A DNA stretch of 64,000 nucleotides from Reclinomonas americana ATCC 50394 (Eukaryota): the NCBI GenBank assembly GCA_048213135.1, contig PS015126.1, forward strand, positions 1 through 64,000, read 5' to 3'. Shown one piece after another: positions 30,279 through 59,235 of this stretch (position 1 is the stretch's first letter; every line of letters begins with the position of its first letter). The translations under genes and the position numbers were made by a program. The notes beneath the pieces are model-generated. The model was not told the DNA's origin. It made no database searches and was given only the letters and a program-made list of their open reading frames with translations.

Positions 30279-33200
30279 ATGAGCGACTACGATTACATTT
30301 TCAAGGTGAGCAGCGCGGGAGGGAGAGTGAGGGAAGGAGTGACAAGGGAAACAGCTATTTTTTCTCTCTTTCGCTGTCACGTGTCGGTGCTGACAAGGAA
30401 CGAACTGAGAGGGAGAGAAGAAGGGAAAGGGAGTGGAGGGGAGTTGATCACGACTCTTCTCAGTCTCATTCACACTCATTTCACTCTCGTGCTCTGTGAC
30501 GAATCACGCTCTCCCACACACACGAGCACACGCGTTCTCCCTGGCTCCCTCTACTCTCTGTCCCCCTCCTCTCGCTCTTTTGCACTGTCACAATCCGAGC
30601 AAAGATCGCGCTCCTCGTTTCCTCCTTCCTTTCATCTCATCTCCCTCTTTGTCGGCACGCAAACGCACACGCTCTCGTTTCTCCTTCCTCTCCTCTCATC
30701 TCCGTCTTTGTCGGTCTCAAACACAACGCAGATCACACAAACGCACAGGCTCACGTTCCTCCCTCCTCTCCTCTCATCTCCTTTTTGCCCTTACACAAAC
30801 ACAACACAGATCGCACTCCCACAAACTTCTCCCTGACTGCCTCTACTCACCTCTCCTCTTCTCCTTTGCTCTGACACAATACACAGCGCAAACCAGACGT
30901 TCTCTGCGTCGTGATGTCTTGTGTTTCCTTCTCCTCTCCTCTTGCTATCGCCTTTGCACTGCTCAATCACAACACAGATCACGCTCCCGAGGATATAAGC
31001 ACGCACTCTCTCCCCTCTCTTCCTCTTTCCCTCTCATCACTCTCCTCTTGTCTCTTCTCATCTCTCCTTTGCTCTGTCGCAAGCACAACGCGCATCACGC
31101 TCCTCCTGATGCAAGCACGTACCGCTCCCTCTTTTCCCTCTTTGCCTGTTCTCGCATCTCTCTTTTGCTGTACGAATCACGCTCCCGCAGACGCATGCAC
31201 ACACGCTCTCCCTGGCTCCCTCTACTCTGTTCCCCACCCGCTTCTCCTTTGCCCTATCGCAAACACAACGCAGATCACAGGCGCTGGTCGGTGGCGTTCT
31301 TCCTCTCTTTCTCTCTCTCACTTTCTCTTGATGCACTGCTCATGGACACTATGCCGTTCTTTGTTTCAACGCTTCTATATCCCTCTTCCTCTTGCGTTCT
31401 CTATCATCATCAACTGTCCCTCTCTCTCTCACTGCAGCAGCTCGCTGTTCTTCTCTCCCTCCCTTCTCTCTCTCGCCGCTCCTCATCCTTGTTTTTTTGT
31501 GCGTGCATAGATCCTGCTGGTGGGCGACGCGTCGGTCGGCAAGTCCTCGATTCTCCTGCGCTTCACCGACGACACCTTCGATGAGGAAATCGGCAGCACA
31601 ATTGGTAAGTGCTGGTGATGGAGAAGGAATGGGCGAAAGAGAGGATGGAGAGGGGGGGCGAGAACAAGCAAGAGGAATAGAAATATGCGAGTGGGATTTG
31701 TGACAAAGATCGCGCGAGTGTTTGCGGCTGGGCGAAGTGGGAGAGAGAGAGAGGCAGATATGGAGTGAGTGAGTGAGAGAGAGAGCGTTGAGAATGAGAG
31801 AGAACGAGAGACTGAGCGAGACTGAGCGAGACTGAGCGAGACTGAGCGAGACTGAGAGAGAAATGATAGATGCACAGAGTGAGATGGAGTTCCCTTCCTC
31901 TCCGCCATTCTCAACTCACTCTGTCTGTGCCCTACCACTGCCAGGTGTCGACTTCAAGAAGAAGATCGTCTCGATGAACCGCCAGCGTATTTTGTGCACC
32001 ATCTGGGACACGGCTGGTGCGTTTCGATCACTGTTCGTGTGCTGGACACGCACACTTGCATTCACGACTGCAATGGCACACACGCACACACGCACACGCA
32101 CACACACACACACACACACTCACTCACTCACACTCAAGTACACCCACACCCACAATAATACGCACACGCACACGCACGCGCACTTGCACAGCACACGTAG
32201 AACATGCAGTTAAGCATCCTCACTGTTGCACAAACTCACGCTTGCATAGACTCTCACTCTCTTTCACACACATACGCGCCCTTTCACCTGCACTCTCTCT
32301 CTCTCTCACGGGTTACTCGTCAACAGTGATACGTGCTCATGCACACCCGCACTCACACTCACACACGGGTACGTTTTCTCATTCACTGTTCTCATCGCAG
32401 GCCAGGAACGATTCCGCACGCTCACATCCGGTTACTACCGTAACGCCAAGGGAGTGGTACTGGTGTACGATGCCTCGAGCAGGAAGACGTTTGAGTCGGT
32501 GCAAATGGTGAGTTGCTGGTGCCGAATCACGTGCAAACAACGAGGGGACGCGGAAAGAAGGGAGGATGTGTGAGGGGAAGAGGAGGGAGGGGAAGAGGAG
32601 AGAGGAGAAGAGGAGAGAGGGGAAGAGGAGAGGGGAAAACGAGAGAGGGGAAGAGGAGTCACTCTCACTCTTTTCTCTCTCTCTCTCTCTCTCACACCCC
32701 CCAGCTTGCACATTGGCAAATTCGCTCACTTTCTCATCCACTCACTCGTTCTTCAACAAGTGCTTTCTCTCTCTGTGCCCACGCCTTACTTTCACACCAC
32801 CTTCTACGTATTCACTCACTGTTTCTCCCACTCGATCATTGTACGACCGACGTCCTCACTTGCATTCTGTCTCTGTTTCTCTCTTGTCTTGCACGCTTGC
32901 ACGTCCGTGTATTCGCTCGCTTTGTACTTGCTCATTCGTCGACCAGTGCCTTCTCTCTCTGTGCCTATCTCTCCCTCGCCTTATTTTCACACCACCTTCC
33001 ACGCATGTGCGCCTGTATTCAGTCACTGTATCCCCCTCGCTCATTATTGACAGACGACTTCTCTTCGTGCGCCTTCTCTCTCTGATTTCTCTCTTTCTCT
33101 CTCTTCTCTCTCTCACCCAGCTTGTACGTTCGCGCATTCGCTCACTTTCACGTCCACTCTCTCGTTCTTCGACAATCGCCTTCTCTCCTGTGCTCTCTCT

Positions 33201-34525
33201 CTTTCACTTGTTCATTTGCTTGTTTACTTTCACCCACTTGCTCGTTCGTGGACACACACGCCTCTCACTCTTTTGCTCACGATTCCCCCCTTTTGCGACG
33301 CAGTGGCTGGAGGAGGTCGACAACTACTCCACACACCAAGTGGTCAAGCTGCTGGTGGCCAACAAGATCGACCTGGAGAGCCAGCGACAGGTGTCGAGAG
33401 AAGAGGGTGCCAAGTTTGCGCGTCAGAATGGCATGCTCTTTATCGAGTGCAGTGCCAAGACGCGGGAGGGTGTCAGCGAGGCGTTTGAGGAGTTGATTCA
33501 CAAGGTGAGTTGAGAAAGGGAAGGGGGGAACAAAGGGAAGGGAGGAGGGAAGAGGGGAGGGAGGGGAGAGAGGGAGGGGAAGGGAAGAGATGCAATGAGA
33601 GCCGAGAATAGGGAGAGAGAGGAGGAGGAGATGTAAATAGAGGGCCACACTACTTAGTGGGAGACACACGAGAGGATTGAGGAATCCTCGTTGAGAAACG
33701 GCAGAGAGGTGGAAGAGATGCAAACAGAGAGCCACACTGCTTTGTGAGAGACACACGAGAGTAGTGATGAATGCACATCGAGGAAGACAGCGAGGTGGAC
33801 GTAACTGCATAAGAGATAAAAATGTCCTGCGAGGAGACCTTGGGCAGAGCGGAAGAAACGGCACTGTAGACGAGTGTCAGAGATAACACAACGAGGGAGA
33901 CATAGAGGGTCGATGAGCGCACGGCGGGAGCGACAGTGAATGGACGACGAGAGAGGCGTGCAGGGGAAATGACTGCATGCCGAGAGAGACGGGTTGGACA
34001 TAATTGCGAAAGAGAGGAAGGTGAATGGACAACGAGGGTGGTATGAGGAGAGATGATTGCATGTCGAGAGAAAGGCGATGATAGATGATCGCATGTCAAG
34101 GGCGACAGAGAAGAAGATGAATGGACGACCAGAGAGGCGTGAAAGGAGATGACTGTATGCCGAGAAGATATAGTTGAGAGAGAGAGAGAGAGAGAGAGGA
34201 AGGTGAATGGACGACGAGGTAGACATGAGGGGACGTGACTGCATGTCGAGAGAGATATTGAAGAGAGATGAACGGTGAATAGATATGTTTGAACAACCGA
34301 TGCACCCTGGGAGGAGAGTTGAATGCATGAACAGTGACTGCGAGAGAGAAGAGCATGAAATATCGAATGCGGCGCTGAGAAGACAGGGAGCCTGCGACTC
34401 ACAGACAGGTCTGCTTCTGACCGCCCCGCGCGCAGATTCTGGACACACCCGCTCTTCTGGAGAACGCAGCGCCGATTACGATATCACAACCGGCCGACGA
34501 GAGCAAGGGCGGACGGTGCTGCTGA
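30279..34525 (+). CDS. RAB18: Rab18-like small GTPase, 6 exons
   Basis: [45 protein letters not shown]...[19 protein letters not shown]...|WLEEV...ANKID...[31 protein letters not shown]...[14 protein letters not shown] and KIL.TP.L are Rab18-typical; CC prenylation end. Confidence 0.9.
33640..34360. repeat. Degenerate intronic repeat in Rab18 last intron (GTGAATGGACGACGAG...ATGACTGCATGtCGAGAGA units)
   Basis: Five or more imperfect ~80-bp units. Confidence 0.6.
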
Positions 34526-37039: not shown

Positions 37040-37751
37040 CGTCGTCTCTACTCTCTCGTCTACTCGTCGTACGTCGNNNNNNNNNNNNNNNNNNNNNNNN
37101 NNNNNNNNNNNNNNNNNNNNNNNNNNNNNNNNNNNNNNNNNNNNNNNNNNNNNNNNNNNNNNNNNNNNNNNNNNNNNNNNNNNNNNNNNNNNNNNNNNNN
37201 NNNNNNNNNNNNNNNNNNNNNNNNNNNNNNNNNNNNNNNNNNNNNNNNNNNNNNNNNNNNNNNNNNNNNNNNNNNNNNNNNNNNNNNNNNNNNNNNNNNN
37301 NNNNNNNNNNNNNNNNNNNNNNNNNNNNNNNNNNNNNNNNNNNNNNNNNNNNNNNNNNNNNNNNNNNNNNNNNNNNNNNNNNNNNNNNNNNNNNNNNNNN
37401 NNNNNNNNNNNNNNNNNNNNNNNNNNNNNNNNNNNNNNNNNNNNNNNNNNNNNNNNNNNNNNNNNNNNNNNNNNNNNNNNNNNNNNNNNNNNNNNNNNNN
37501 NNNNNNNNNNNNNNNNNNNNNNNNNNNNNNNNNNNNNNNNNNNNNNNNNNNNNNNNNNNNNNNNNNNNNNNNNNNNNNNNNNNNNNNNNNNNNNNNNNNN
37601 NNNNNNNNNNNNNNNNNNNNNNNNNNNNNNNNNNNNNNNNNNNNNGTTTCCGTTCCGTCCGTACGTACGTACGTACCTTCCTTCCGTTCGTTACTTACGT
37701 TTCGTTTCGTTTCGTTTCGTCTCTCTACCTACTACTCCCTCCTCCTCTCTC

Positions 37752-38486: not shown

Positions 38487-41400
38487 TTAGTTCTTGAGGA
38501 AGCGGATGCCGCAGTAGGCGACCACTCTCATGAATGCAATCAGGGCAAACAGCACGCCAATGCAACCGCCGATGGTGATGTAGTCGTAGCCCTGGGCGCT
38601 AATCGTCTGCTCGCCCGATGTGACGGGGCATTGGCCCTTGGAGTTGAGCTGCGCCGGTGTGCAGTAGAGCTCGAGGCCGGAGAGCTCATTCAGGGCAAGA
38701 CCCACAAAGGCGTACTTGATGAAGCTCAGGGCGTCCTGCAAACAAGCAATAAGACGAGTGGACAGAGGGAGAGGGAGGAGGGTGGAAGGGAGAGTACGTA
38801 CCAGCCACACAAAGTACTTGGGCAGGAAGGCGGGTGCCAAGAAGAAACCGCCAAAGAGACGGGTAATCTGGGAGGGGTGGGGAGGAAAATGGTTAGCTTG
38901 TGCGTGATCTACTACTGCACTCAAAAATCTGGGCATCGCCGACGGTGACTGACAGAAAGGAGAGGAGATGGAGGAGGTGACAGGGAGGAAACGAGTGCAC
39001 ACGCATCAGCGTTGTGTTTGCGACAGAATTAAGGAATAGAGAGAGTGGGACGAGAGTCTATCTCTTACAAAACACAGGTGCAATGCAGGCTTCCCCTCTC
39101 CTCTCACCCATCACCCGCATCTCACCTCGAGCCACATCGGCAACACCGTAAGCGACTTCGTGGCCGTCTTGCACAACGCCGACACCATCAGCGCGAGTGA
39201 CGTGGCCGAAATCGTGCACAGCATCATGAACACCATAAAGACGAAGAACTTGCCGGCGTTGGGCTGCAGGCCCACCATCCAGTACACGATGCAGCTGAAG
39301 AGGATCTGCGGCCACCAATGTAAGCAGCCAGTGAGTGACACACAAACGTACACACAGAGTTCGACAATAAACATCAAATTCTACAAAGACTCGCTCATAC
39401 ACGCATCCACGAACACAACAATCACGGAGACAAACGATCCCACACACACATACACAAAAGCTCAACATATACAGCATCGCACACAAGCAAACACACAGCC
39501 CACCACTGGAACACGCACACACAAAAATCTTGCAGACTTATAGGATGCACGACAGACGAATCCACTTTCTCGCACACACAGTTCACATCAAACTAACACA
39601 CACACACACAGGTGGCCCCCACTCTTCGCTCTCTTCTCAACTGCCTTCGTTCTCACCTCCCCTTCCCCTTTTACCTTCCCTTCGCCTTCCACACACACAC
39701 ACACACACACGTGGCCCCCACTCTTCGCTCTCTTCCCATCCGCCTTCGTTCTCACCTACCCTTCCCCTTTTACCCTCCCTTCCCGTTCCACCCTCCCTTT
39801 CCCTTCTGCCTCCTTTTCCCCTCCACTCACCGGCTGAATGAGCTGCACGATAAACTCGACGACCATCTTGGCGCAAAAGTACGCACTGGCGCGATACGTA
39901 CCCGCCAGGCGTTCCCTCAACGACAGCACACGCTCCTCGGGGAACGAGTTGACCACCGACATGGAGCCGCACACTCCCTGGTTGACGCAGCAGAAGAAGA
40001 GCAGCGGAGCGCGGCGGCTGATGCTGCTCTGCGAGGTGCCGATTTGATAAAAGGCGCCGCCAATCAGCAGAGACATGATAATGTTCTGGATTGTGGCCAC
40101 AATGACGCTGCCGCGGTGTCGCCACTGCTCCTTCATGCAGCGCGTGGTCAGCGTGACAAACTGGCGCATCCATGAGGTGCGGTCGCGCTCCATCAGCGGC
40201 GCCACCTCATTGTCGTCGTCCAGGCCCATGCCACCGTCCTTGGAGGCCACGCCACCGTCGCCGTCGTGCGGTCGTTTGAGGTGGTCCTTGTTGCGTGACA
40301 GCGGCTTGATGGCCGGCCGCATGGGCAGCTCCAGCCCGCGATCCACATCGATCTCGCGATGTGGCAGCAGCGCGCGCAGGCGTTGGGCGTTCTCGTCGGC
40401 CTTTCTCCGCGCCTCGTCGGCGTCCACGGCGCGGTCCTCAATGGTGGCCGACACCACCTCCATGACGTGGTCGGCGGGGTTGTTGGCGGCGTTGGCAGGG
40501 AAGCCGGCCTCGGCGTAGTAGCGCAGAATGTCCTTTTGCGGGCCCCAGTAGATGGTTTGACCAAAGTTGAGGAGGAGGATGTCATCTGCGACAAGGGGAA
40601 AGGGGGATAAAAGGGAAAGGGTGAGGAGGGTGAAGGGAGAGGCAAAGTGGAAAGAGGGAGAGGGAAGAGAGGGAGGAGGGAAGACGGAAGAGGGGGGAGA
40701 GGGAGGGGAGGAGAAGGGAAATGGGAGAGGCAAGGGAGAGAGTGAGAGAGACCGTGCGTCGGAGAGAGAGAGAGAGAGACACGTGGTGGACGATGAGCGA
40801 CAATGACTATCACGAGACGGACTGAAGAGGTAGAGACGGACAAGAAGGAACGTGGATACCGAAAGGCACAAGACATGAAAATCGAAGAAAACAGAAGCCG
40901 CCTAGAACAGAGAAGACGTACGAACCGAAAAGAAGGACTTGACTCGCTTTAGACACGGAAGGCAAATGGCGAAAGCAAACGCAATGAGGTAGAGAAACAG
41001 AATACAAGACACTCCGCCCGAAGAGGAAAGAGAGGAATGCGAAAGAGAGAGAGAGAAACGAAGAGAATCAGAAAGAGAGAGAGCTAGAGAAAAAAAGAGA
41101 ATAAGAAAGAGAGAGAAAATGAGAACCAGTGAGAGCGAACAATAACATTCCGTCACCTCTGGCAAGACAACAGTTACAGCGAGATTAGTGATACAAATGT
41201 ACAGATAAAAAGACTAGGAAAGAGAGAGAATGCAAAGGCGAGAGAGAGAGAAAAACAGAAAATGAGGAAGTGAGAAACAGAGGGAATGCAACACAGAAAC
41301 AGAGAGAAAGACGACGGTGAACGCAAGCGTAACGACAAAAGATACAGAAAAGAGACTGTGTGAGAGAGAAGCAGAAAGAAGTCAAAAGAGATAGAGAAAG

Positions 41401-43655
41401 GAGCATGAGGAAGAACACATTTCCACCACCTCCGCCAAGACGACGGTGAAGGCCAGCGTGATGACACCAAAAAAGACAGGAAAGAGACTGTGCATGTGTG
41501 AGAGAAAGGGAGAGAATGAGGACGAACGCGCTTCTTCCCACCTCCACCAAGACCACATTGAACGCAAGCGTGATGACACACAGATACAGAAAAGAGACTG
41601 TGTGTGTGTGTGAGAGAGAGAAACAGAGAGAAGGCAAAAGCGAGAGAACAGAGAAAATGAGAAACAGAGAGAATGAGAAAGAGAGAGAGAGAGAAGGAAA
41701 AGAGAGAGAGAAGAACAAGAAAAACGAGGAAGTGAGAAACAGAGGGAATGCAATAGAGAAAAAAAGCATGAGGTAGAACACGTGCCCTCCACACCTCCGA
41801 CAAGACGACGGTGAACGCAAGCGTGACGACACAAAGATACGACCGTGTGGGAGAGAGAGAAAGAGAGAAAATGCTCGGTCGCCCTTCCCCTTGTCCTTTC
41901 CCTCTCTAATCCCTTGCCCTTTCCCCATTCGTGGCACTCACCAAACATGTCAAAAATCTTGCTCTGCGGCTGATGAATGGTGCACACAATGGTGCAAATG
42001 CGCGTGTCGGCAATCTTCTTGAGGTACGAGCACACCGACAGCGCCGTCACCGAGTCGAGACCCGTGGTCGGCTCGTCGAGGAAGAGGAGCGTCGGTCCGC
42101 ACAGCAGCTCAATGGCAATGGAGAGGCGCTTGCGCTCGCCACCCGAGATGCCGTCGGTGGACTCGCCGACAAGTGTGTTGCGAATGTTCTGCAGACCCAT
42201 TTGCTCAATGGCCCACTCGACGCGCTCGTCGAGAATCTCTTGCGGCGCCGAGCCGGGCAGGCGCAGGCGCGCCGTGTACTGCAGCGTCTCCTCCACCGTC
42301 AACTTGCCGTTGAGCAGATCCGCTTGCATCACGTAGCCGGCCATGATCTTGAGGTCGGCGAGGGTGTACGGGCGGCCGTTGAGACGCGTTTCGCCCTCAA
42401 ACGACACCATGTTGTCTTGGCGGCGGGCGAGGGCGTTGAGGAGAGTGGTCTTGCCGGAGCCACTCGGCCCCATAATGGCCAGGAAGCCGCCGGCGGCCTG
42501 GCCGGAGACGCCCGTGACGAGGATCTTGCGCTTGCCGCCGGCCTTGCGGGGTTGCGCGAAAATCACGAGGTCCTTCCAGGTGAGCACGCTGGGGACGGCG
42601 GAGTCGAGGCGGGTTTCGATGTCGGTGTGGTCGATCACGGGGTCTGCAGAATAGGGAAGGGAGGGAAGGGGGGAGTGAGGGAAAGGGGTAAAGGGCAAAG
42701 GAGGAGAGGAGAGGAGAAGGGAGGAGAGATGAGGAGAGAAGTGGATCAGAGGAGAGGAGCACAGGAGAGGAGCAGGAGAGGAGATGAGGAGAAGAGAGAA
42801 CAAAGGAGGAAGTGACGGAAAGCAGAGAGAAAGAAAAGAGAAGCAAAGAGGGAGAGAAGAGAAGAGTTGAGAAGAGACGAGGCACGGCGAGGAGCAAAGA
42901 CGAGGGGAGTAGTGTGGAGAGGAGAGGAGAGGAGAGGAGAGGAGAGGAGAGGAGAGGAGAGGAGAGGAGAGGAGCAAGAGCAGGAACAGGAGAGGAAAGG
43001 AGAGGAGAGGAAAGGAGAGGAGAGACGAAAGGAGAAGGGAAATGAAGTGAAAGAGAGAGAAAAGATGAGAAAAAGCGAGGCACTGCAGGAGAAGCGACGA
43101 GGAGTGGAGTGGAGTGGAGAGGAGTGGAGAGGAGAGGAGAGAAGAGAAAAGAAGAGAGAGGAGAGGAGAGGAGATGGAGGGAAGGGAAGAAGAGCAGCCA
43201 GAGCACAAGAAAGCAATGACAGATCGCAGAAAGACAACAGAGCGCGAGACTCGTTTGAGAGCGAAAGAGAGAGAGAGAGAGTGAAAGTGATGCAGTGAGG
43301 CTGCAAGAGTGTGCGCAAGACGTGAGAGAGCGAGCAGCAGAAAAAGAACAAGGGGCGCAGAGACAAAGGGTGCGCGCGCGCGACAACACCCCAATCGGTG
43401 CGCAAGAACCCGGAGACACACACACACACACGACTGATGCAGAGAGAAAAAGAGAAGAGAGAGGCGACATGGGAGACCGACAACAAAGCAAGTGCATTAC
43501 TTGCGGCCGCGTGCGCGTGTGACTGTGAGTGAGAGAGAGACAGAGTGATGCAGCAACTGTGAGTGCGCGCGCTCTTTCTCACCTCGTGTGTTGACACTGG
43601 CTCCGCGGTCGCGGCGACCAGGAGAGGGAATAGGCGACAGCTCAACGTCTGTCAT
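38487..43655 (-). CDS. ABCG (White-type) half transporter, NBD-TMD, 6 exons
   Basis: Walker A GPSGSGKTT, signature ISGGERKR, Walker B LLFLDEPTTGLDS, CTIHQP, NPADH, ABC2-type TMD (ER.L.LRER.AG.Y...Y; IVYWMVGLQ; LS.IKYAF.GLA.NEL); stop 38487-38489. Confidence 0.95.
41230..41860. repeat. Degenerate intronic repeats in ABCG intron 2
   Basis: Recurring AAGACGACGGTGAACGCAAGCGTGAtGACAc..GATACAGAAAAGAGACTGTG. Confidence 0.6.
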
Positions 43656-51100: not shown

Positions 51101-52463
51101 CGCTGAAGGCGTCAGTGGCCTTTGCACTGTGCGGCGTGCAGACACTGCGTGCCGGCAACACGCCGACGGACTACCGTCCCGACACATTCTCCACCTCGTA
51201 CACGCCGTCGACGTCGGCCGTCTCTCTGTCCACCCTTGTCAGCGGCAGCTCGCGTGTCAGCCAGCTGCGCTACTCGTATGTCGCTGGGTCTGGGTTGATC
51301 GACGCGACGAACAACGCCAGTGGATATGTGGTGTATGCTGGACGTGCGTCGTGGGGGGAAGGAGGGGGGAGAGGGGGAGAGGGAGAGAGAGGAGAGGGGA
51401 AGAAGGGGAGGGAGGTGGGAGGAGAGGGAGAGGGAGAGGGAGAGGGAGCATGAGAAGAGATTGACAGGCGGAATGAGGGTCAAGATGGAGAAGGGACTGA
51501 GAATGAGAATGAGAATGAGAATGAGAGGGAGGAGAGGATGGAGAAGGAAAGCGGCAGCAAGAGAAATGAGACCTGGTGGCAGGGAGTGGACCAAGAAGAA
51601 AGAAAGGAGGAGAGGATGGAGAAGGAAAATAGCGACGAGAGAAAATGAGACTTGGTGGATTAAGAAGAAGGAGAGGGAGGAGAGGGTGAGAAAGCAGCGG
51701 CGGGAGAAAATGAGAATTGGTGGCAGGGAGTGGACCAAGAAGAAATAGAGAGGGAGGAGAGGATGGAGAAGGAAAGCAGCGGCGAGAGAAAATGAGAATA
51801 AGTGGCAGGGAGTGGATTAAGAAGAAGAAGGAGAGGGAGGAGAAGATGGAGAAGGAAAGAAGCGGCAAGAGAATTGAGAATTGGTGGCAGAAAGTGGACT
51901 TAGATGAAGAAAGAGTGGGAGATGTAGGACGGGAAGGAGAGAGCATGATGTTGATAGATTGGAACGTTCACTGGTCCATCTCCCTATTTCTTCTTGGTCC
52001 ACTCCCTGTCACCAAGTCTCATTTCTCTCGCCGCTGCTTTCTTCTCCGTTCTCTCATCCCTCTTATTCTCCTTCACATTCTCATCTCATTCTCCTTCTCC
52101 CTCTCTCGCGCTTCAATTTTCCTTCTCTTTCTGACGCACTTCTATGCTTTCCCTCAACTCTCTTCTCTCTCTCTATCCTCCCTCTCTCCCCTCCCAGCGG
52201 CCTCGGGCTCCGGCGCTGTGTCGGTCGCCTTTACCAGCGCCAATCCCGCCTTCACCCCGCTGCGCCCGCTCGGCTTCCAGGCCGCCGTCTTCCTCAAGGA
52301 CTACAACTCGGGCACGGTGACCAGCACCATTAGTGTCAGTGTGGGCGGTCTCGGGCAGACCACCAATGGTGCCGGCAACTACACGGGACTGACGTTTACG
52401 ATTTCAGCGCCGATGGGTGGGTCGGCCAGTGCCTCGTGGATTGCGATTGGTCGGCCGGCGTGA
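48120..52463 (+). CDS. Extracellular Ser/Thr/Ala-rich beta-rich protein ending in three H-type-lectin/gp53-like repeats; 5' end not identified
   Basis: In-frame chain of exons (approx. 48122-48413, 48471-48771, 48839-49047, 50293-50513, 50572-50815, 50894-51343, 52198-52463); repeats end ...QYLAV, ...RYSYVAG, ...SWIAIGRPA*. Confidence 0.6.
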
Positions 52464-54262
52464 GCGCGTGGCTGGTGCTTGTTGGTGGGAATGGTCGAAA
52501 AATGAATCCGATGGGAGAAGGGGGATGGAGGGAGGGACGCAGGCGCCTTGCGCATGCAGCTTGGGTGAAGGAAGAGTGCATTTACACACATGTGAGTGAA
52601 ATGGAAGAACGACTTTGAGGCGCACTCTATCGCCTGCTCGATCTTCACCTTCAGAAACCGTGGCGGAATTTGATTGGCTTTGCCTCTTGAAAGGGAAGAT
52701 GACTGTTGGAGAGGTAATTATGTGTCTGTATATTGTTGGTGTGCCAGAGTCATTCCCGGGAAGGGATTTGTGGGCGATTATTGCATTATTGGAATGTGGT
52801 GAGTGAAGTGTTTTGTTTTTTTTCAGTCGACGTCGCGTCCTGCTGCAATGCATTCACTCACTCTCTTGCAAGTCAGAGAGAGAGAGAGAGAGAAAGAGAG
52901 ACGACTGGCGGACTGCGTGAGACGTGCTCGGAACAAAGCATATTACTTCTGACGAGCAAAAAAAACAAAAGACGAATCGGTGCATCGAGTCGAGTATGGT
53001 GTGTATGTCATTGCGCTGTGCTATATTGACGATGTGGCGGACACTGTGGTTCTCTCTCTTTTTCTCTCTCCCTTACTCTCTCTCTCTCTCTCTGTGCGCA
53101 CTTGTCACTGACTGCAGATTTGTGTTTCTGGCAGTTCTCTGTACATGTGCTCAAAAGCGGTGCATTTGGGGAGGCGGTGAATTTGGTGGACGACATGTCG
53201 CGCGCTTCCGCTCTCTCCTCACGAGAAAGCGACGCTGCACGACGTCGCTCATCGCGCGAGAAGAATGAATGCAGAGGATGGGAGGCCGTACCGAAGACGA
53301 AACTGGTGACGAACATCCTGGAGTTTGTGGACGACAGTAGTGTTCTTGTACAGGTGGCCACCAGTCTCGTCGTTCATGAGCCACCTCGCTCTGACGGTGG
53401 GGAGCAGTCCTTTGAAGAGGAAGTGCGCGCAAAATCGGTCTATCATTGCGTATGCCGTCCCCGTCTCATTTCTGCGTTCCGTGACAGTATCACAAGCACG
53501 ACCTTGAGGAATTCGAAGGAGCATTTGGTTCTAAGCAGTCAACGTTGCCGTCGATGACGCAAGTCGGCAAGCTTCCGGTTGTGCGAGAGAATGGAGGGAG
53601 GAGTGAAGACGGAGGGAGCGGTGGCTTTACAAACCCGAATTCTCGGTCGGAGATCACGGCACCGACAAAGTTCTGTAAGCCAAGTTTGTGGTTCCTATGT
53701 GCCTTGCAGATGCCATGCTCTCACGCACACTGCGCAACAATTTGCAGTTTCACTCTTGCCTACAAGAACAGGTTGCGAGCGAATGACTGCCTTGCCTTTC
53801 ATTATTACCCCTCACTTCGATTGCCCGATCACCGCTCAGAGCTGATCGTACTCTGTCGCATGAGTGTACCGGCAGTTTGGCTGAGACGTGGTAGCTGAGT
53901 TCCGATGCAATCTTTGAGGTGTGGCGCGGATGCGTGTGTAACTGACTGGCGAACTGGTGCAACATTGCAGTGCTTTGAAGTCAGCAACTGCGGTGGACAT
54001 GTCAGCGCCCGACAACCACGATCGTGCAACAGTCGGCGCTTGTGGGTGCGACAATACCGTTACCCTGCCGCTCACACTGCATGTTGCTCACTTCTCGTGC
54101 TCAGAACAAGCAGGCAAGGCAAAATGACCTGGCAATCCTGTCGACTGTCAATGATGATGGTTTCTCGATTGTCAAGGCCACTCTTGCGCGGCGGTGGTGC
54201 CTGTGTTTCCTGCGGCACAAGGCAGCGCACGGCTGGACGCGTTTATCCGGCAATGCCGTCAG

Positions 54263-54920
54263 CCGCTGAACATGGACCCGTCACTCCCAGCCACCCTCAT
54301 CACACAGCAAATCCACGTGTATCACCTGAACAACGCTCACCATTGGATCCACTGCAATCGCAATCCCCGCCATTGACCCCACACCGAATTCAACTGCCAG
54401 AATTTGAAGTGGTGCTGGCGTCGCGCCGAGCCTCACATGTACAGCCGCCATCACGCGAACATCAAGGTCCACAACAGTCCTCGTTGAGTGATCCACAACC
54501 GCTGCCTCCTGCGTCAATACTGCCCGAGTCGCCGTCGGCACCATGGTCAGAGCTGGAAATGCTTCCACAAGCGCAGCAGTTGTCACCGACGACACGTACA
54601 GATGTGGTGTCTGTTCGTGTCGTGGCGATGCATGACTCTTCGCTGTCGGTGGTGGTGCAGGGCATGTCAGCCATGTCCACTCTCGCAGACTTGTTGCGTG
54701 AAGCCACGCGCTTACTGCGTGAGAGAAGTGGGGATGGAGAGATGGAGATCGTGGGGGTGGAGAGGCCAGTGCCGTTCAACATTGCTAAAGTCGGTGTGAT
54801 GGAGCTGGAAGATCTTGGCATTTCTGCCAATACGCCACTGGCTGTGAGAGTAACCGTATCTCCTTTTACTGCTGCTGCTGCTGGTGCATCAGCATGGGCG
54901 GGAGAGGGCGAAACTGAAAG
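54263..54920 (+). CDS. Upstream exon of the NACHT-WD40 gene: Pro/Ser-rich linker plus ubiquitin-like domain candidate
   Basis: VSVRVVAM...STLADL.......ELEDLGISANTPLAVRV resembles a beta-grasp fold; donor AAG|GTGAGT at 54921 (phase 2) joins TTCTGCAG| at 55094 in frame with the big ORF; exon 5' end approximate. Confidence 0.5.
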
Positions 54921-55095
54921 GTGAGTGGTTCACTCTGAATCGTTTGCTCTGTGTTTTCAATGGAGTGCTGACACTTGCATCAAAATTACTCTTGTCCAGC
55001 GCGTCAGGATTCATATTTTCTGAGCGGTTTGCAAGTCATCTATGTTTCGAGCTCGAGAAGTATATTACTAAGCTGATGCACTGTAATTCTGCAGC

Positions 55096-58000
55096 ATGAT
55101 CAACTTCAGTCGCGTCAGTATGGCGTTTGAAGCACTGGTTACCGCAATGCGTCTGCGTAGTCAATGTGCACTGGCTAGCTTCAGTCGCGATAATCCCGAC
55201 TTTGATGTGCGAGCGTGGACTCCCGACGTGTGGACTCCTCCACTGTTCTGGCATCCAATGACGATCAGGACGTGGTACAGTGGTCATGCGCCACTCAGCC
55301 CTGGTCGAGTCAAGTTATATGGGCCGCAGCAGCAGCATGTGTTGGACTGGAAGACTGCCTTTGATGCCGACCCCACATCGGACCCTTCTTGTGATGCATT
55401 CGACGTGACGGCATTGGCCTCGATCCTGCTGTTTGGTGGTCTTGTGCTTGACGACGGTCGCAAGGCACTGCTACTTGACGATGTTGATGAACGAAAGGCG
55501 GTGGAGCAGTTGCGTGAAGTGCGAAACGAGTTGGCACATGGTTCGTCGGCTTGGACCGAGGCCAGTCTGCGAGAGTACCTTGGCGACGGCGACGGCGGTG
55601 TTCTCATCTCTATCTTGGCCAAGCTGCGCCTTTCTGGTGAAGTGCGAGACTACATCACGACGAGAATACGCGAGGCTAGTCATGTCCAGCACATCATCAG
55701 CACATTCGAGGAGCGACTGCATCGACTGGCCGTGCGTGAAATGGTCAGCTATCGCGAAAACGACAGTCTGTACATGGACATGCAGATGTATGTGCCACTT
55801 CTGTGCTCACATGAGCGTGATGTCTCGTCGCGAGACACAGTGATGGATCTGTTGACGGATGTGGACGCTTTCCTCGCCAACACCAACACCACGCAGCGTG
55901 TGCTGGTGCTGTTTGGCAACAGTGGTGCTGGCAAGACTATCACCATGTCAGTGCTGGCAGAGAGAGCATGGCGACGGTGGCAGACGAGAGAGAGCAGACG
56001 AGTGCCTGTGCGTGTGCCTCTTGGTGCTTTGCGCAATGCCGATGAGCGGCTGTTAGAGGAGGCACTGGAGCGACTGTCTCCCGAGTTGGGACTGGCGTCG
56101 GATGTGCGGCGATTGAAGGAAGAACCACTCTTGCTGTTGCTTGACGGGTACGACGAGTTGTATCGTGGTGTGAATCTGTTTGTGACGAACCAGCTGGATG
56201 TGTGTCGCGATGTAAAGGTGATTATCACCTGTCGTGGCGATTACGCGCTGACGGCACTTGGTGGTGTGACACAGTATCGACGGTTCTTTGCGCCGGTGGA
56301 TGCACGAGGACAGTTGTGCACGCAACAGCTTATGCAGCGGCACCTAGCACCATTCAACGCGGAGCAGATTGAGGAGTACTTTGCGCGACTTATGCAACTG
56401 GGTGGTGATGATGGCGAAGAGCGGTGGTCGACTGCCGCGGAGTACATTCGTGCACTGAAGAGTGTGCATGGACTGGATGCGCTGGTGTCGAATCCGTTCT
56501 TGCTGACAGTGGTGGCTCGTGTGTTGCCGCAGTTGGTGGCAAGTGGTGTGCAGCGACCGACTCGGTGCGATGTATTTGACCGGTTCATACGACAGTGGAT
56601 TGAAAGGGAGCAGGAGAGACAGACGCGTCTTGGTGCAGAGCGCGTGCCGAGCGAGGAGACGTGTTTGGCGTTCTGCGAGGGACTGGCGCGATTGATGCAC
56701 GAGAGGAATGTGGTGCGTGTGTCTGTGATGGAGAGTCGGTTAGGTGATGAGGAGGATGATTTTGGTGGTGCGCCTCTCGCCTTGCGACGAGTGAAAGAGA
56801 GAGCGTTTGACAAGTTCCTCGGCAGCAAGAACCAGCATGTGCGAGTGTGCTGTCCAATTGTGCGACGGTATGGGACGACGCAGTGGGGGTTCGTGCATGT
56901 GTCGTTGCTGGAGCACTGTGTGGCACGGCATGTGTTTGCATGGAAGACGTGGGATGAGGAGCGGAGATTAACGATGCAAGATGTGCAGCAGCATGTGCTG
57001 GCAGTGCGGTTGCTGAATGATCGACCATCGTTGGTGGAGCAGATGGCCGAGGTGGTGCGACGGTCCCCCACCTTGCAAGCGAGACTGTGGGAGGTGATTG
57101 CAATGTCGAGGGAGGTGGATGAGGAGCGATTGGTGACGGCGTCGGCGAATGCAGCAACGATGTTGTGTGTGGCTGAAGTGTCGTTCAGTGGGCGAGATTT
57201 GTCGGGCGTGCAAGTGAGGGGTGCGGATTTGAGGGATGCGGTGATGCACAGGACGGTGTGGAGGGGAGCGGATTTGCGAGGGGTGAATGTGTGCATGGCG
57301 TATGCTAGGGAGGCGGATTTCAGAGGGGCGGATGTGACCGGTGTGAAGTGGCCGCAGAAGCCCATGGTTGGACACACAGACTGGGTGAGAGCTGTTGCCG
57401 TCACACCTGACAGTCAGTACATCGTGGGCGGCAGTGACGACAGAACTGTACGAGTGTGGTCGCTGGCTAGTGGTGAGGAGGTGCGCCGGCTGGAAGGTCA
57501 CACCGCCGCAGTGCAGTCTGTTGCTGTCACTCCCAATGGCGAACACATTGTGAGTGGGAGTCGTGACAAGACTGTACGGGTGTGGTCGGTGGCAAGTGGC
57601 GAAGAGGTGCGCCGTCTGGAGGGACATACTAAGCAGGTGTTTTATGTCGCCGTCACTTTCGACGGTCAGCATCTAGTTAGTGCGAGTCAGGACAAGATGC
57701 TGCGAGTGTGGAACATTGATAGTGGAAAATGTGTGCGTCGTCTAAAGGGACACACAAGAGGTGTGTTGACTGCTGCCACCACCCCCAACGGGCAGTTCGT
57801 TGTGAGTGGCAGTGAAGACAGGACAGTGCGCGTGTGGTCACTGGCAAGTGGGGAGGAGATGCGCCGACTGGAGGGCCACACTGACTACGTACTATCTGTT
57901 GCCATCACTCCAGATGGTCAGCATATACTGAGCGGTAGTGATGATAAGACAATTCGGATGTGGTCGCTGGCGAACGGAGAAGAAATGAGACGGTTTGAAG

Positions 58001-59235
58001 GTCACGCGGAAGGAGTAATGTCTGTTGCTGTCACTCCGAATGGTCTGCACATTATCAGTGGCAGTCACGATAAAACTGTACGCGTGTGGTCACTGGCGAA
58101 TGGAGAAGAAGTACGACGACTGGAGGGACACACTTGGGGAGTGGAGAGCGTCGCAGTCACTCCTGACGGTCAGCACATTTTGAGTGGGAGTGAGGACCAG
58201 ACAGTGCGAATGTGGTCTGTGGCAAGTGGAGAGGAGGTGCGACGGCTAGAGGGCCACTCTGACTACGTGTGGACTGCTCTCGTCACCCCCGATGGTCAAT
58301 TTATCGTTAGCGGAAGCTACGACGGAACCGTGCGATTGTGGTCCGCTGTAAACGGCGAAGAAATGCGACGGTTTGAGGGACACATCGGAGCGGTGTTGTC
58401 CGTTGCGATTTCATCTGATTGTCTGCACCTTGCGAGTGGCAGTCGTGACAGTACTGTACGAGTATGGTCACTGACACATGGGGCAGAAGTGCGACGATTG
58501 GATGGACACACCAACGCCGTGCAATCTGTGGTCATCTCATCCGATGGCCATTACGCTGTAAGCGGAAGTGACGACACGACAATTCGAGTGTGGTCACTTG
58601 TGAGCGGTGAGGTGGTGCGGCGAATGGAGGGTCACACTGATCGCGTGAACGCTGTTGCCGTATCTCCCGACAACGTGTACATTGTTAGTGGGAGTGAGGA
58701 TATGGATGTTCGGGTATGGTCACTGGCGAGTGGAGAGGGATTGCGACAATTGGGAGGACACACTGGATCGGTGCGGTCCCTCGTCGTCACCTTTGATGGT
58801 CTGTTCATTGTGAGTGGCAGTGAGGATGAGACCGTGCGTGTGTGGTCGCTTGCGCTTGGTGAAGAAGTGAGTCGACTGGAGGGCCACACTGGCTCTGTGC
58901 GGTCTGTTGCTATCGCCACCGATGGCCAGCACGTTGTGAGCGGGAGTGAAGACGGGACAGTGCGATTGTGGTCGTTGACGAGTGGCGATGAGATGTACCG
59001 ACTGGAGGGACATACTGGATATGTAAACTCAGTTGCTTTCACGGCAGACTGTCGGCACGTCGTCAGTGGTAGTGATGACCGGTCCGTGCGAGTGTGGCAT
59101 GTAGCGAGAGAAGAACAAGTTCCTCGCGATCGTGATACAGATGCGGCAACGCGCATTAGTAATCGAGGAGGATGTTTGCTTGAGAGAGTTTGTGGTTCGT
59201 TTTTGCCTGATTTTACCGACGCTTTGTATGAATAA
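55096..59235 (+). CDS. NLR-like STAND protein: DZIP3-type HEPN domain, NACHT NTPase, pentapeptide repeats, 14 WD40 repeats
   Basis: FDVTAL..IL...QLREVRNELAH (HEPN RxxxxH); Walker A GNSGAGKT (55915-55938); Walker B LLLLLDGYDE; KVIITCR; NPFLL; FVH.SLLEHCVA; A(D/N)L pentapeptides 57181-57345; 14 GH...W repeats at exact 126-bp period from 57370. Confidence 0.92.
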   Translation: MINFSRVSMAFEALVTAMRLRSQCALASFSRDNPDFDVRAWTPDVWTPPLFWHPMTIRTWYSGHAPLSPGRVKLYGPQQQHVLDWKTAFDADPTSDPSCDAFDVTALASILLFGGLVLDDGRKALLLDDVDERKAVEQLREVRNELAHGSSAWTEASLREYLGDGDGGVLISILAKLRLSGEVRDYITTRIREASHVQHIISTFEERLHRLAVREMVSYRENDSLYMDMQMYVPLLCSHERDVSSRDTVMDLLTDVDAFLANTNTTQRVLVLFGNSGAGKTITMSVLAERAWRRWQTRESRRVPVRVPLGALRNADERLLEEALERLSPELGLASDVRRLKEEPLLLLLDGYDELYRGVNLFVTNQLDVCRDVKVIITCRGDYALTALGGVTQYRRFFAPVDARGQLCTQQLMQRHLAPFNAEQIEEYFARLMQLGGDDGEERWSTAAEYIRALKSVHGLDALVSNPFLLTVVARVLPQLVASGVQRPTRCDVFDRFIRQWIEREQERQTRLGAERVPSEETCLAFCEGLARLMHERNVVRVSVMESRLGDEEDDFGGAPLALRRVKERAFDKFLGSKNQHVRVCCPIVRRYGTTQWGFVHVSLLEHCVARHVFAWKTWDEERRLTMQDVQQHVLAVRLLNDRPSLVEQMAEVVRRSPTLQARLWEVIAMSREVDEERLVTASANAATMLCVAEVSFSGRDLSGVQVRGADLRDAVMHRTVWRGADLRGVNVCMAYAREADFRGADVTGVKWPQKPMVGHTDWVRAVAVTPDSQYIVGGSDDRTVRVWSLASGEEVRRLEGHTAAVQSVAVTPNGEHIVSGSRDKTVRVWSVASGEEVRRLEGHTKQVFYVAVTFDGQHLVSASQDKMLRVWNIDSGKCVRRLKGHTRGVLTAATTPNGQFVVSGSEDRTVRVWSLASGEEMRRLEGHTDYVLSVAITPDGQHILSGSDDKTIRMWSLANGEEMRRFEGHAEGVMSVAVTPNGLHIISGSHDKTVRVWSLANGEEVRRLEGHTWGVESVAVTPDGQHILSGSEDQTVRMWSVASGEEVRRLEGHSDYVWTALVTPDGQFIVSGSYDGTVRLWSAVNGEEMRRFEGHIGAVLSVAISSDCLHLASGSRDSTVRVWSLTHGAEVRRLDGHTNAVQSVVISSDGHYAVSGSDDTTIRVWSLVSGEVVRRMEGHTDRVNAVAVSPDNVYIVSGSEDMDVRVWSLASGEGLRQLGGHTGSVRSLVVTFDGLFIVSGSEDETVRVWSLALGEEVSRLEGHTGSVRSVAIATDGQHVVSGSEDGTVRLWSLTSGDEMYRLEGHTGYVNSVAFTADCRHVVSGSDDRSVRVWHVAREEQVPRDRDTDAATRISNRGGCLLERVCGSFLPDFTDALYE

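Follow-up and report, generated by a model that had tools for sequence, protein, structure and literature searches.

A putative NLR-type NACHT-pentapeptide-WD40 protein with a candidate HEPN head in Reclinomonas americana

Gene organization

The window analysed here (a 64-kb stretch of Reclinomonas americana ATCC 50394, contig PS015126.1) contains a forward-strand ORF of 1379 aa (55096-59235) encoding a NACHT NTPase domain, pentapeptide repeats and 14 WD40 repeats, which is a real, intact nuclear gene of an intron-bearing eukaryote. The main exon (55095-59235) carries the ATG at 55096 and the stop codon at 59233-59235. No HSPs were obtained outside the ORF in a search for paralogues or gene clusters within the 64-kb window, and the window contains no Rfam match. 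It also carries an ABCG gene with spliceosomal introns. The best matches of this gene (55-58% identity) come from green algae, chytrids and Tribonema alike, and its introns rule against a kinetoplastid origin of the DNA, which composition had suggested.

Judging from splice signals and codon usage, a small coding exon upstream (54556-54920, forward strand; in-frame ATG at 54559) is probably spliced to the ORF through a 174-nt intron (54921-55094, forward strand; GTGAGT...TACTAAG...CAG). The exon ends at 54920 with the donor AG/GTGAGT, and the intron at 55094 with the acceptor CAG; across the junction a phase-2 codon (AG+C) is formed, which leads in frame into ATG 55096. The in-frame splice proposed in the initial annotation is thus plausible, with canonical sites and frame at the level of the sequence. 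All three frames of the candidate intron contain stops, its GC content is 42.5%, and AGGTGAGT has only 7 occurrences on both strands of the window. Among the ABCG introns of the window (n = 3), all three donors read GTGAG[T/A] and two acceptors were read as CAG. Scored for codon usage with the main ORF as training set, 54556-54918 reaches +0.22 in frame, vs -0.20 and -0.35 out of frame, and ranks among the highest 1.7% of 14128 stop-free scoring windows and the highest 0.67% of 96058 scoring windows overall. GC by codon position in the upstream exon (.65/.49/.53) is similar to that of the main ORF (.64/.46/.58). Farther upstream, the stretches between 53905 and 54555 are not coding-like by the same score, and the coding status of a possible P/S/Q-rich N-terminal extension from the in-frame ATG at 54253 (54253-54555, forward strand, open in the exon frame) is uncertain, its score being that of a median stop-free window (a fraction of 0.50 of the null scores as high or higher). 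There is no start codon at 54263, formerly taken as the start of the gene; ATGs in frame are those at 54253 and 54559.

Alternatively, the intron may lie in the 5' UTR or be unused, in which case translation would begin at ATG 55096 and the protein would not include the upstream ORF. This gene model is independent of how the N-terminal module and the function of the protein are read. It would agree with the position of ATG 55096 one base past the acceptor, with an in-frame TAA at 55084-55086, with the non-coding-like upstream stretches and with the abundance of long ORFs in the window (47 of at least 250 aa are listed, some of them inflated by N runs). The stop codon of the upstream ORF, however, sits within the donor, the junction is in frame, and the exon ranks high under the main-ORF codon model, so that translation from ATG 55096 alone appears doubtful, though still a possibility to be taken seriously.

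The upstream exon is possibly a beta-grasp domain, as suggested by a predicted beta-beta-alpha-beta segment (E17-24, E31-37, H43-58 and E63-68) in an AlphaFold model of pLDDT 43.6, in which C-terminal strands are not predicted. ESM Atlas provides leads to Rad60-SLD (0.89) and ubiquitin (0.88), with 122-123 of 256 features shared. Ubiquitin and Rad60-SLD profiles gave no Pfam match to the exon at E<=10, nor was there a PDB match; together with the low model confidence, this also favours the model in which the exon lies outside the protein. The ubiquitin-like pattern noted earlier hence finds no Pfam ubiquitin-family counterpart at that threshold, and corresponds to a low-confidence model.

NACHT, pentapeptide and WD40 regions

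The NACHT domain (PF05729; aa 268-386, 55897-56253) was matched by Pfam at 36.2 bits (curated cut-off 26.7; E 7.1e-9). Walker A and Walker B motifs are defined as GxxxxGK[ST] and hhhhDGxDE, respectively, and both are intact in this domain, as GNSGAGKT (aa 274-281, 55915-55938) and LLLLLDGYDE (aa 345-354, 56128-56157). Helical domains follow, and precede pentapeptide repeats (PF00805; aa 694-752, 57175-57351; E 6.9e-7 for aa 694-729 and onward), a region to which NCBIfam MfpA/Qnr-type models match below threshold.

The C-terminal part consists of 14 WD40 repeats of 42 aa each (57364-59127), matched by Pfam in 14 stretches (E 3.1e-159) and showing a period of exactly 42 aa across aa 757-1344. 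This number is enough for two 7-bladed propellers, which the array may form, and TEP1-type propeller models of Pfam match it as well. The repeats are old and diverged: mean inter-repeat identity is 57% for the protein, 64% for nucleotides and 45.5% at third codon positions, with no sign of recent diversification or homogenisation among the repeats and no periodicity at any lag. Variation is highest in repeat columns 6, 7, 9, 18, 25 and 27, which presumably form the top, ligand-binding face of the blades.

The NACHT, pentapeptide and 14 WD40 assignments made from the sequence at first reading were thus all recovered by Pfam. The protein combines a variable N-terminal module, a STAND NTPase and C-terminal superstructure-forming repeats, the tripartite arrangement of NLR-like proteins, and the NLR-like architecture proposed earlier agrees with these domains as well as with relatives bearing other N-terminal modules. 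Its domain content supports the identification of the product as a putative STAND/NLR-type sensor-switch-effector protein.

Relatives of the protein

From NACHT to WD40, the chassis is a member, by sequence homology, of a family with swapped N-termini. This NACHT-pentapeptide-WD40 family occurs in Mortierellomycota (Linnemannia, Mortierella, Haplosporangium), in their endosymbiont Mycoavidus cysteinexigens and in scattered bacteria (Nitrospirota, Tatlockia, Protofrankia). BLASTP aligned aa 176-1297 with a Linnemannia protein (P0003; E 2e-133, 30% identity over 1149 columns) and also matched a EukProt protein (P0004; E 6e-37); the pentapeptide region aligns with the pentapeptide regions of both. 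A profile search added 57 longer relatives, the precomputed Pfam lists or names of which include TIR_2, metallophosphoesterase, EF-hand or ankyrin. Homology to the relatives starts only at about aa 176, and none of the 59 relatives matched aa 1-200 in phmmer (best E 0.29).

A tree was computed from 42 of the 60 family sequences (59 relatives and the protein itself), those with a profile match of more than 350 positions being kept. The Reclinomonas protein falls outside the Mortierellomycota and Mycoavidus clade (support 100/100), on a long branch (2.08) on which it is weakly paired with P0004 (91/76, with a long-branch warning).

N-terminal module

The N-terminal module (aa 1-175) is an orphan: phmmer with the N-terminus (aa 1-260) gave no match among 1.84 billion (1.84e9) representative sequences, and a scan of metagenome contigs with the N-terminus gave five loci, all matching the NACHT region only, at 26-28% identity. 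Within the module, a HEPN-like region was delimited at about aa 75-180 (55318-55635, forward strand) from sub-threshold profiles and ESM Atlas leads. It contains RNELAH (aa 143-148, 55522-55539), a candidate Rx4H catalytic motif with R143 and H148, and upstream of it FDVTAL (aa 102-107, 55399-55416), both present as first noted.

Four sub-threshold HEPN profiles from two libraries converge on a single RNELAH-bearing helix (aa 128-156), namely Pfam HEPN_Swt1 (E 0.0086-0.018; 15.8-16.8 bits, cut-off 27.5), Pfam HEPN_RiboL-PSP (E 0.076-0.22; 11.8-13.4 bits, cut-off 28.4), PADLOC CARF_HEPN (E 0.0023) and PADLOC RTasHEPN (E 0.027). No Pfam or PADLOC HEPN profile reaches its curated threshold, only about 25 residues being aligned, and even the best PADLOC matches (E 0.0023-0.076) are at noise level. 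HEPN_DZIP3 (PF18738), to which the initial annotation had pointed, gave no match at E<=10 on aa 1-235, 61-215 or 81-185, and is represented by an ESM Atlas lead only; the first ESM Atlas matches, to be taken as leads, are clusters of HEPN_Swt1 (0.79) and HEPN_DZIP3 (0.78). Ten N-free translations from the same window served as negative control for the sub-threshold matches. HEPN families account for 0 of their 9 sub-threshold Pfam matches, and none of the 10 has any PADLOC match. Since one control sequence reached a sub-threshold E of 0.019, and the unrelated Methyltransf_8 matched the upstream exon at a strength (E 0.005) similar to that of the HEPN matches, E-values like those of the HEPN profiles arise by chance.

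RNELAH satisfies the Rx4-6H motif of HEPN domains. In 260 aa of this composition, chance predicts 0.8 occurrences of a bare Rx4H, which is therefore not significant by itself, vs 0.017 occurrences of RNx3H. Asparagine after the arginine is described as typical of HEPN in PMC9646362 and its reference 68. In section 7 of Anantharaman 2013 (PMC3710099), HEPN is presented as a four-helix up-down bundle in which the motif ends helix 3, and the linear order found here, an acidic-residue helix (FDVTAL), an insert, the RNELAH-ending helix, a loop and a further helix, fits that description. An AlphaFold2 single-sequence model of aa 1-260 places helices at 97-114, 132-147 and 155-162, with RNELAH at the end of 132-147; its mean pLDDT is 39.7, with values below 50 in 247 of 260 residues, and it is too poor to define the fold because the N-terminus has no homologues. 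Modelling aa 61-235 as a pair gave no answer (score 0.17, mark 0.32) and is no argument in either direction. In PDB phmmer, aa 1-260 gave chance-level matches only, e.g. a polyhydroxyalkanoate synthase (E 1.1).

In our judgement, these sequence features make the N-terminal module likely to be a HEPN domain, with a putative RNase mechanism. Of the HEPN RNase claimed earlier, the intact RxxxxH stands, while all HEPN profiles remain sub-threshold. The same STAND chassis might instead carry a helical domain that is lineage-specific and unrelated to HEPN (an adaptor, or an effector of another kind), in which an RNxxxH helix occurs by chance. Such a head would account for HEPN matches that are all sub-threshold and confined to one helix, for the lack of homologues and for the low fold confidence; P0003 and P0004 have long alpha-helical N-termini of no enzymatic family, and the 'NLR_Helical' domain provides a precedent (Wojciechowski 2022, PMC9815663). 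The convergence of four HEPN models, vs no HEPN match in the 10 controls, and the HEPN-typical asparagine argue against it, and we regard a non-HEPN head as rather unlikely. Its EF-hand form, prompted by a weak parvalbumin-like alignment over the same stretch (PDB phmmer, E 0.57), is rejected, as there is no Pfam EF-hand match at E<=10 and the loops lack canonical Ca-binding positions.

Possible function

Taken as a whole, the best explanation, to which we assign a probability of about 0.5, is an NLR-type STAND protein in which a divergent HEPN head on the shared chassis would act as an oligomerisation-activated RNase with a defence or conflict output. The lineage-specific N-terminal module (aa ~75-180) would be a divergent HEPN, with RNELAH ending its third core helix. 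A ligand would be bound by the WD40/pentapeptide part, and the NACHT domain would then oligomerise in an NTP-dependent manner. The HEPN domains would thus come close to one another, and their Rx4H motifs could pair into an RNase site; by cleaving RNA, the protein would arrest or kill the cell in defence or conflict.

A non-immune scaffold or regulatory NACHT-WD40 protein, working in the manner of TEP1 or NWD1 without death or defence output, would be consistent with the age of the WD40 repeats (45.5% identity at third codon positions), with a gene that has no paralogue or cluster within the 64-kb window and with the matching TEP1-type propeller models. It is rather improbable in view of the TIR_2 and metallophosphoesterase heads swapped within the family, as N-terminal module swapping is described as typical of conflict systems (Kibby et al., bioRxiv 10.1101/2022.07.19.500537), and of variable repeat columns at what is presumably the ligand-binding face. 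For the defence-linked STAND protein preferred here, the immune or abortive role is suggested by architecture only, by analogy with such systems.

STAND receptors that are NLR-like and bear enzymatic heads are well known from animals, plants, fungi and bacteria but, to our knowledge, hardly from free-living protists. We tentatively propose, as a reading that may well not hold, that the protein is a protist-built, RNase-armed NLR and the founding member of a new HEPN family on a NACHT-pentapeptide-WD40 chassis, maybe with a beta-grasp domain in front. If so, the chassis would have its nearest kin in the proteins of another protist and in bacteria, and the gene would represent an independent eukaryotic origin of the HEPN-NACHT death/defence design otherwise known from animals and bacteria, as well as evidence for cross-domain movement of a sensor chassis and local effector swapping. 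Should the head be a working HEPN RNase, the principle of oligomerising to switch on an RNase would have an independent origin or assembly in a further eukaryotic lineage, the known HEPN domains would gain a new, very divergent family, and the gene (one exon, 1379 aa) would be a tractable case of effector swapping on a chassis common to bacteria and early-diverging fungi. Should the head not be HEPN, the protein would simply be another orphan-headed NACHT-WD40 protein.

Comparison with known systems

In RNase L and Ire1, sensor-driven self-association switches on a KEN-type HEPN RNase. The KEN domain is counted among HEPN domains in PMC3710099. This is a working analogy only, as the Reclinomonas protein has no kinase or pseudokinase and presumably no sequence relation to these enzymes.

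Like the fungal HET-E/HET-D/NWD proteins of Podospora, the protein carries, after its NACHT domain, a long array of 42-residue WD40 repeats that resemble one another unusually closely, their mean identity of 57% comparing with the 10-20% given as usual for WD proteins in PMC1805685. Unlike them, it has no HET domain (no Pfam HET match), and its repeats are not homogenised, while those of Podospora NWD proteins are described there as up to 100% identical through concerted evolution. The comparison with HET-E/NWD allorecognition made in the initial annotation therefore fails for the repeats, which are old and diverged (64% nucleotide and 45.5% third-position identity).

Animal and bacterial HEPN-NACHT receptors have already been described (PMC9646362, PMC3710099). 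The animal ones include DZIP3/hRUL138-like HEPN-NACHT proteins (bivalves, cnidarians), which are also expanded in Capsaspora, and CXorf38-HEPN-NACHT proteins (PMC9646362, PMC3710099), and more than 50 HEPN-NACHT proteins are reported from the pearl oyster (PMC9646362). With these proteins, as presented in those sources, the Reclinomonas protein shares an Rx4H motif (often RN...H) in an N-terminal HEPN, here a candidate one, a central NACHT domain and C-terminal repeats. It differs from them in having no HEPN_DZIP3 match, in belonging to another NACHT clade and in possessing pentapeptide repeats. In the relevant parts of PMC9646362 and PMC3710099, animal HEPN-NACHT proteins are depicted with LRR; tails of the WD40 type come up separately, for NACHT proteins.

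The modules described for bacterial bNACHT/Avs proteins include HEPN RNases and pentapeptide or beta-propeller sensors (bioRxiv 10.1101/2022.07.19.500537, PMC3710099). An effector, a STAND switch and a repeat sensor would be combined in this protein just as in bacterial NACHT/STAND defence proteins, but its gene is eukaryotic and intron-adjacent and matches no PADLOC family beyond noise. Relative to the Mortierellomycota/Mycoavidus family, the protein has an unrelated N-terminal module in place of the long helical N-terminus shared there, whereas the NACHT, helical domains, pentapeptide and WD40 parts are homologous.

Domain architecture of the NACHT-WD40 ORF

The main ORF (1379 open codons; 55096–59235, plus strand; residues numbered from ATG 55096) is a real, intact gene of confirmed NLR-type architecture, with a HEPN head that is probable from sequence comparison. 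The NLR-like order proposed in the initial annotation is borne out by Pfam, which matches a NACHT domain (residues 268–386; E = 7.1e-9, with 36.2 bits where the gathering score is 26.7), pentapeptide repeats (from residue 694; E = 6.9e-7) and 14 WD40 stretches (residues 757–1344; E = 3.1e-159). Walker A (GNSGAGKT; residues 274–281) and Walker B (LLLLLDGYDE; residues 345–354) are intact, and the two N-terminal motifs noticed in that annotation, FDVTAL (residues 102–107) and RNELAH (residues 143–148; 55522–55539), were found where it had placed them. An antisense ORF of 387 codons (56241–57404, minus strand), opposite the NACHT-to-pentapeptide region, has no family matches and is most likely a by-product of sense-strand codon bias.

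The WD40 array is strictly periodic (14 × 42 residues), with a mean pairwise identity among the 14 repeats of 57% in protein and 64% in nucleotide sequence, and its most variable repeat columns are 6, 7, 9, 18, 25 and 27, which would lie on the top face of the propeller. Identity at codon positions 1, 2 and 3 is 68%, 79% and 45.5%, respectively, and comparison of the repeats by lag favours none, which marks the array as old and maintained by purifying selection. It lacks the homogenisation of the Podospora NWD repeats, which reach up to 100% identity (Paoletti et al. 2007, PMC1805685).

The N-terminal module

The nearest relatives are homologous only from about residue 176 onward. In a search of 1.84 billion representative proteins, residues 1–260 had no match at E ≤ 0.001; none of the 59 family relatives shares them (best E = 0.29), and all five loci found in metagenome contigs match the NACHT region alone. 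Four HEPN profiles from two libraries converge, all below threshold, on the same helix (residues 128–156), namely Pfam HEPN_Swt1 (E = 0.0086–0.018; 15.8–16.8 bits against 27.5) and HEPN_RiboL-PSP (E = 0.076–0.22), and PADLOC CARF_HEPN (E = 0.0023) and RTasHEPN (E = 0.027). The HEPN_DZIP3 profile, proposed earlier as the test of this module, gave no match to it. Among 10 N-free control translations from the window, five had sub-threshold Pfam matches (nine matches; E = 0.019–1.9), none of the nine to a HEPN family, and none of the 10 had a PADLOC match. The top ESM Atlas clusters for the module, HEPN_Swt1 (0.79) and HEPN_DZIP3 (0.78), serve as a lead only.

A bare RX4H motif means little alone, since 0.8 occurrences are expected per 260 residues of the same composition; for RNX3H the expectation is 0.017. 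In a low-confidence AlphaFold model (mean pLDDT 39.7), a predicted helix with an acidic residue is followed by an insert, by a second helix with RNELAH at its end and, past a loop, by a third helix, an order that would fit the HEPN core as described by Anantharaman et al. 2013 (PMC3710099). Starting from a prior of a few percent for HEPN at this position and taking the targeted sub-threshold matches into account, we put the probability of a HEPN domain here at about 65–70%.

Gene model and upstream exon

The window is eukaryotic DNA whose genes contain spliceosomal introns, as shown by an ABCG half-transporter gene (38490–42686, minus strand) that is broken into at least four tblastn blocks (42686–41913, 40586–39828, 39305–39123 and 38882–38490) with GTGAG(T/A) donors (GTGAGT, GTGAGT and GTGAGA); two of its three acceptors read as CAG. 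Its introns (about 1.3 kb, 0.5 kb and 0.24 kb) have purine-rich starts and pyrimidine-rich ends.

Upstream of the main ORF, an ORF at 53905–54924 (plus strand) has its stop inside an AG/GTGAGT donor, where the exon would end at 54920. The candidate intron (54921–55094; 174 nt, 42.5% GC, stops in all three frames) contains TACTAAG (55066–55072, plus strand) and ends in an acceptor CAG at 55094, forming a phase-2 codon (AG + C) that leads directly into ATG 55096; AGGTGAGT occurs seven times in total on both strands of the 64-kb window. When codon usage learned from the main ORF is used for scoring, 54556–54918 reaches +0.22 in its own frame and −0.20 and −0.35 in the other two. This score is within the top 1.7% for 14128 stop-free windows and within the top 0.67% for 96058 windows elsewhere on the 64-kb stretch. 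Both stretches upstream of 54556 (54253–54555 and 53905–54252) have median scores, and either ATG 54559 or ATG 54253 may be the true start. The in-frame splice suggested in the initial annotation has the donor, the acceptor, the phase-2 join and the codon score in its favour, but a 5′-UTR intron is possible, because a TAA lies in frame at 55084–55086 and ATG 55096 is one base past the acceptor. On these sequence features, a spliced upstream coding exon is the likely reading.

The ubiquitin-like pattern once assigned to this exon found no profile backing: no Pfam ubiquitin family matches at E ≤ 10, the sole Pfam match is a sub-threshold one to Methyltransf_8 (E = 0.005), and matches to PDB sequences are at chance level. 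The top ESM Atlas clusters are Rad60-SLD (0.89) and ubiquitin (0.88), which with 122–123 shared features fall below the bar of 0.9 and are treated as a lead only. In a low-confidence AlphaFold model (pLDDT 43.6), the predicted strands (17–24, 31–37 and 63–68) and helix (43–58) might correspond to the initial half of a beta-grasp fold.

Relatives of the chassis

A profile of the chassis (residues 176–760 with the matching parts of P0003, a Linnemannia NACHT-pentapeptide-WD40 protein, and P0004, a EukProt protein; alignment A1) retrieved 57 longer proteins at E ≤ 0.001. Mortierellomycota account for most of them and Mycoavidus cysteinexigens for one; further proteins carry the names Nitrospirota, Tatlockia and Protofrankia, two come from EukProt ('tig...'), and the remainder are unnamed metagenome proteins. 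Other heads, read from precomputed Pfam lists and names, are PF13676, presumably TIR_2 (P0167–P0170 and P0178), metallophosphoesterase (P0161 and P0175), EF-hands (P0156) and ankyrin (P0165 and P0173).

In a maximum-likelihood tree of 42 of 60 sequences (59 relatives and the query; profile match spanning >350 positions), the query falls outside the Mortierellomycota-Mycoavidus clade (100/100). Its branch is long (2.08); it pairs with P0004 at 91/76, and the pair joins the Nitrospirota protein at 84/55, a tentative placement in view of the long-branch warning. The NACHT-pentapeptide-WD40 protein of the endosymbiont Mycoavidus cysteinexigens nests with those of its Mortierellomycota hosts (P0150 and P0125–P0153; clade 100/100), which agrees with the host-symbiont gene exchange suggested by Wojciechowski et al. 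2022 (PMC9815663). That study describes Mortierellomycetes NLRs with a long helical N-terminus common to Mycoavidus, and the part of its text covered here has no mention of HEPN.

Other features of the window

Relatives of the ABCG gene reach at best 55–58% identity, and these best matches are scattered among green algae, chytrids and Tribonema. Codon usage differs sharply between this gene and the NACHT-WD40 ORF, 12 kb apart: third-position GC is 0.83 in the ABCG exons (38493–42686) but 0.58 in the ORF (55096–59232), a gap that may stem from expression level or from the NACHT gene being of foreign origin. Some 2.3 kb upstream of the NACHT gene are purine-rich tandem repeats (51355–51921, plus strand; periods 41, 82 and 147; 79–82% matches), and the ABCG introns are full of similar GA-rich and CT-rich tracts. 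In an ORF at 32566–33513 (plus strand), residues 245–314 match the C-terminal half of a Ras-family GTPase profile (E = 4.2e-19); the ORF probably represents a single exon of a small GTPase gene. The window has 19 N runs of 20–569 bases (e.g. 843–1021, 8184–8710, 18056–18486 and 37077–37645), and many mechanically listed long ORFs crossing them are artefacts.

Proposed mechanism and comparison with known systems

The analysis shows the order of the domains, an NTPase that looks competent and a family whose members have exchanged their heads. In the proposed mechanism, the pentapeptide and WD40 repeats would sense a ligand, and the NACHT domain would oligomerise and draw the heads together, where paired RX4H motifs, if the head is HEPN, may make up an RNase able to arrest the cell or kill it.

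In the main-text passages covered on HEPN with NACHT and WD40, neither a protist example nor the exact HEPN-NACHT-WD40 combination with pentapeptide repeats was seen. In animals, HEPN domains of the DZIP3 and CXorf38 types are described as fused to NACHT, and Capsaspora shows an expansion; for bacteria, HEPN-STAND NTPase fusions are described (PMC3710099). Crassostrea has HEPN with WD40 without NACHT (PMC8195603). In the pearl oyster, an N-terminal DZIP3-like HEPN heads more than 50 NACHT proteins, and NACHT proteins with LRR, TPR or WD40 tails also occur (PMC9646362). Bacterial NACHT proteins are listed with HEPN RNase heads and with pentapeptide or propeller sensors (bioRxiv 10.1101/2022.07.19.500537).
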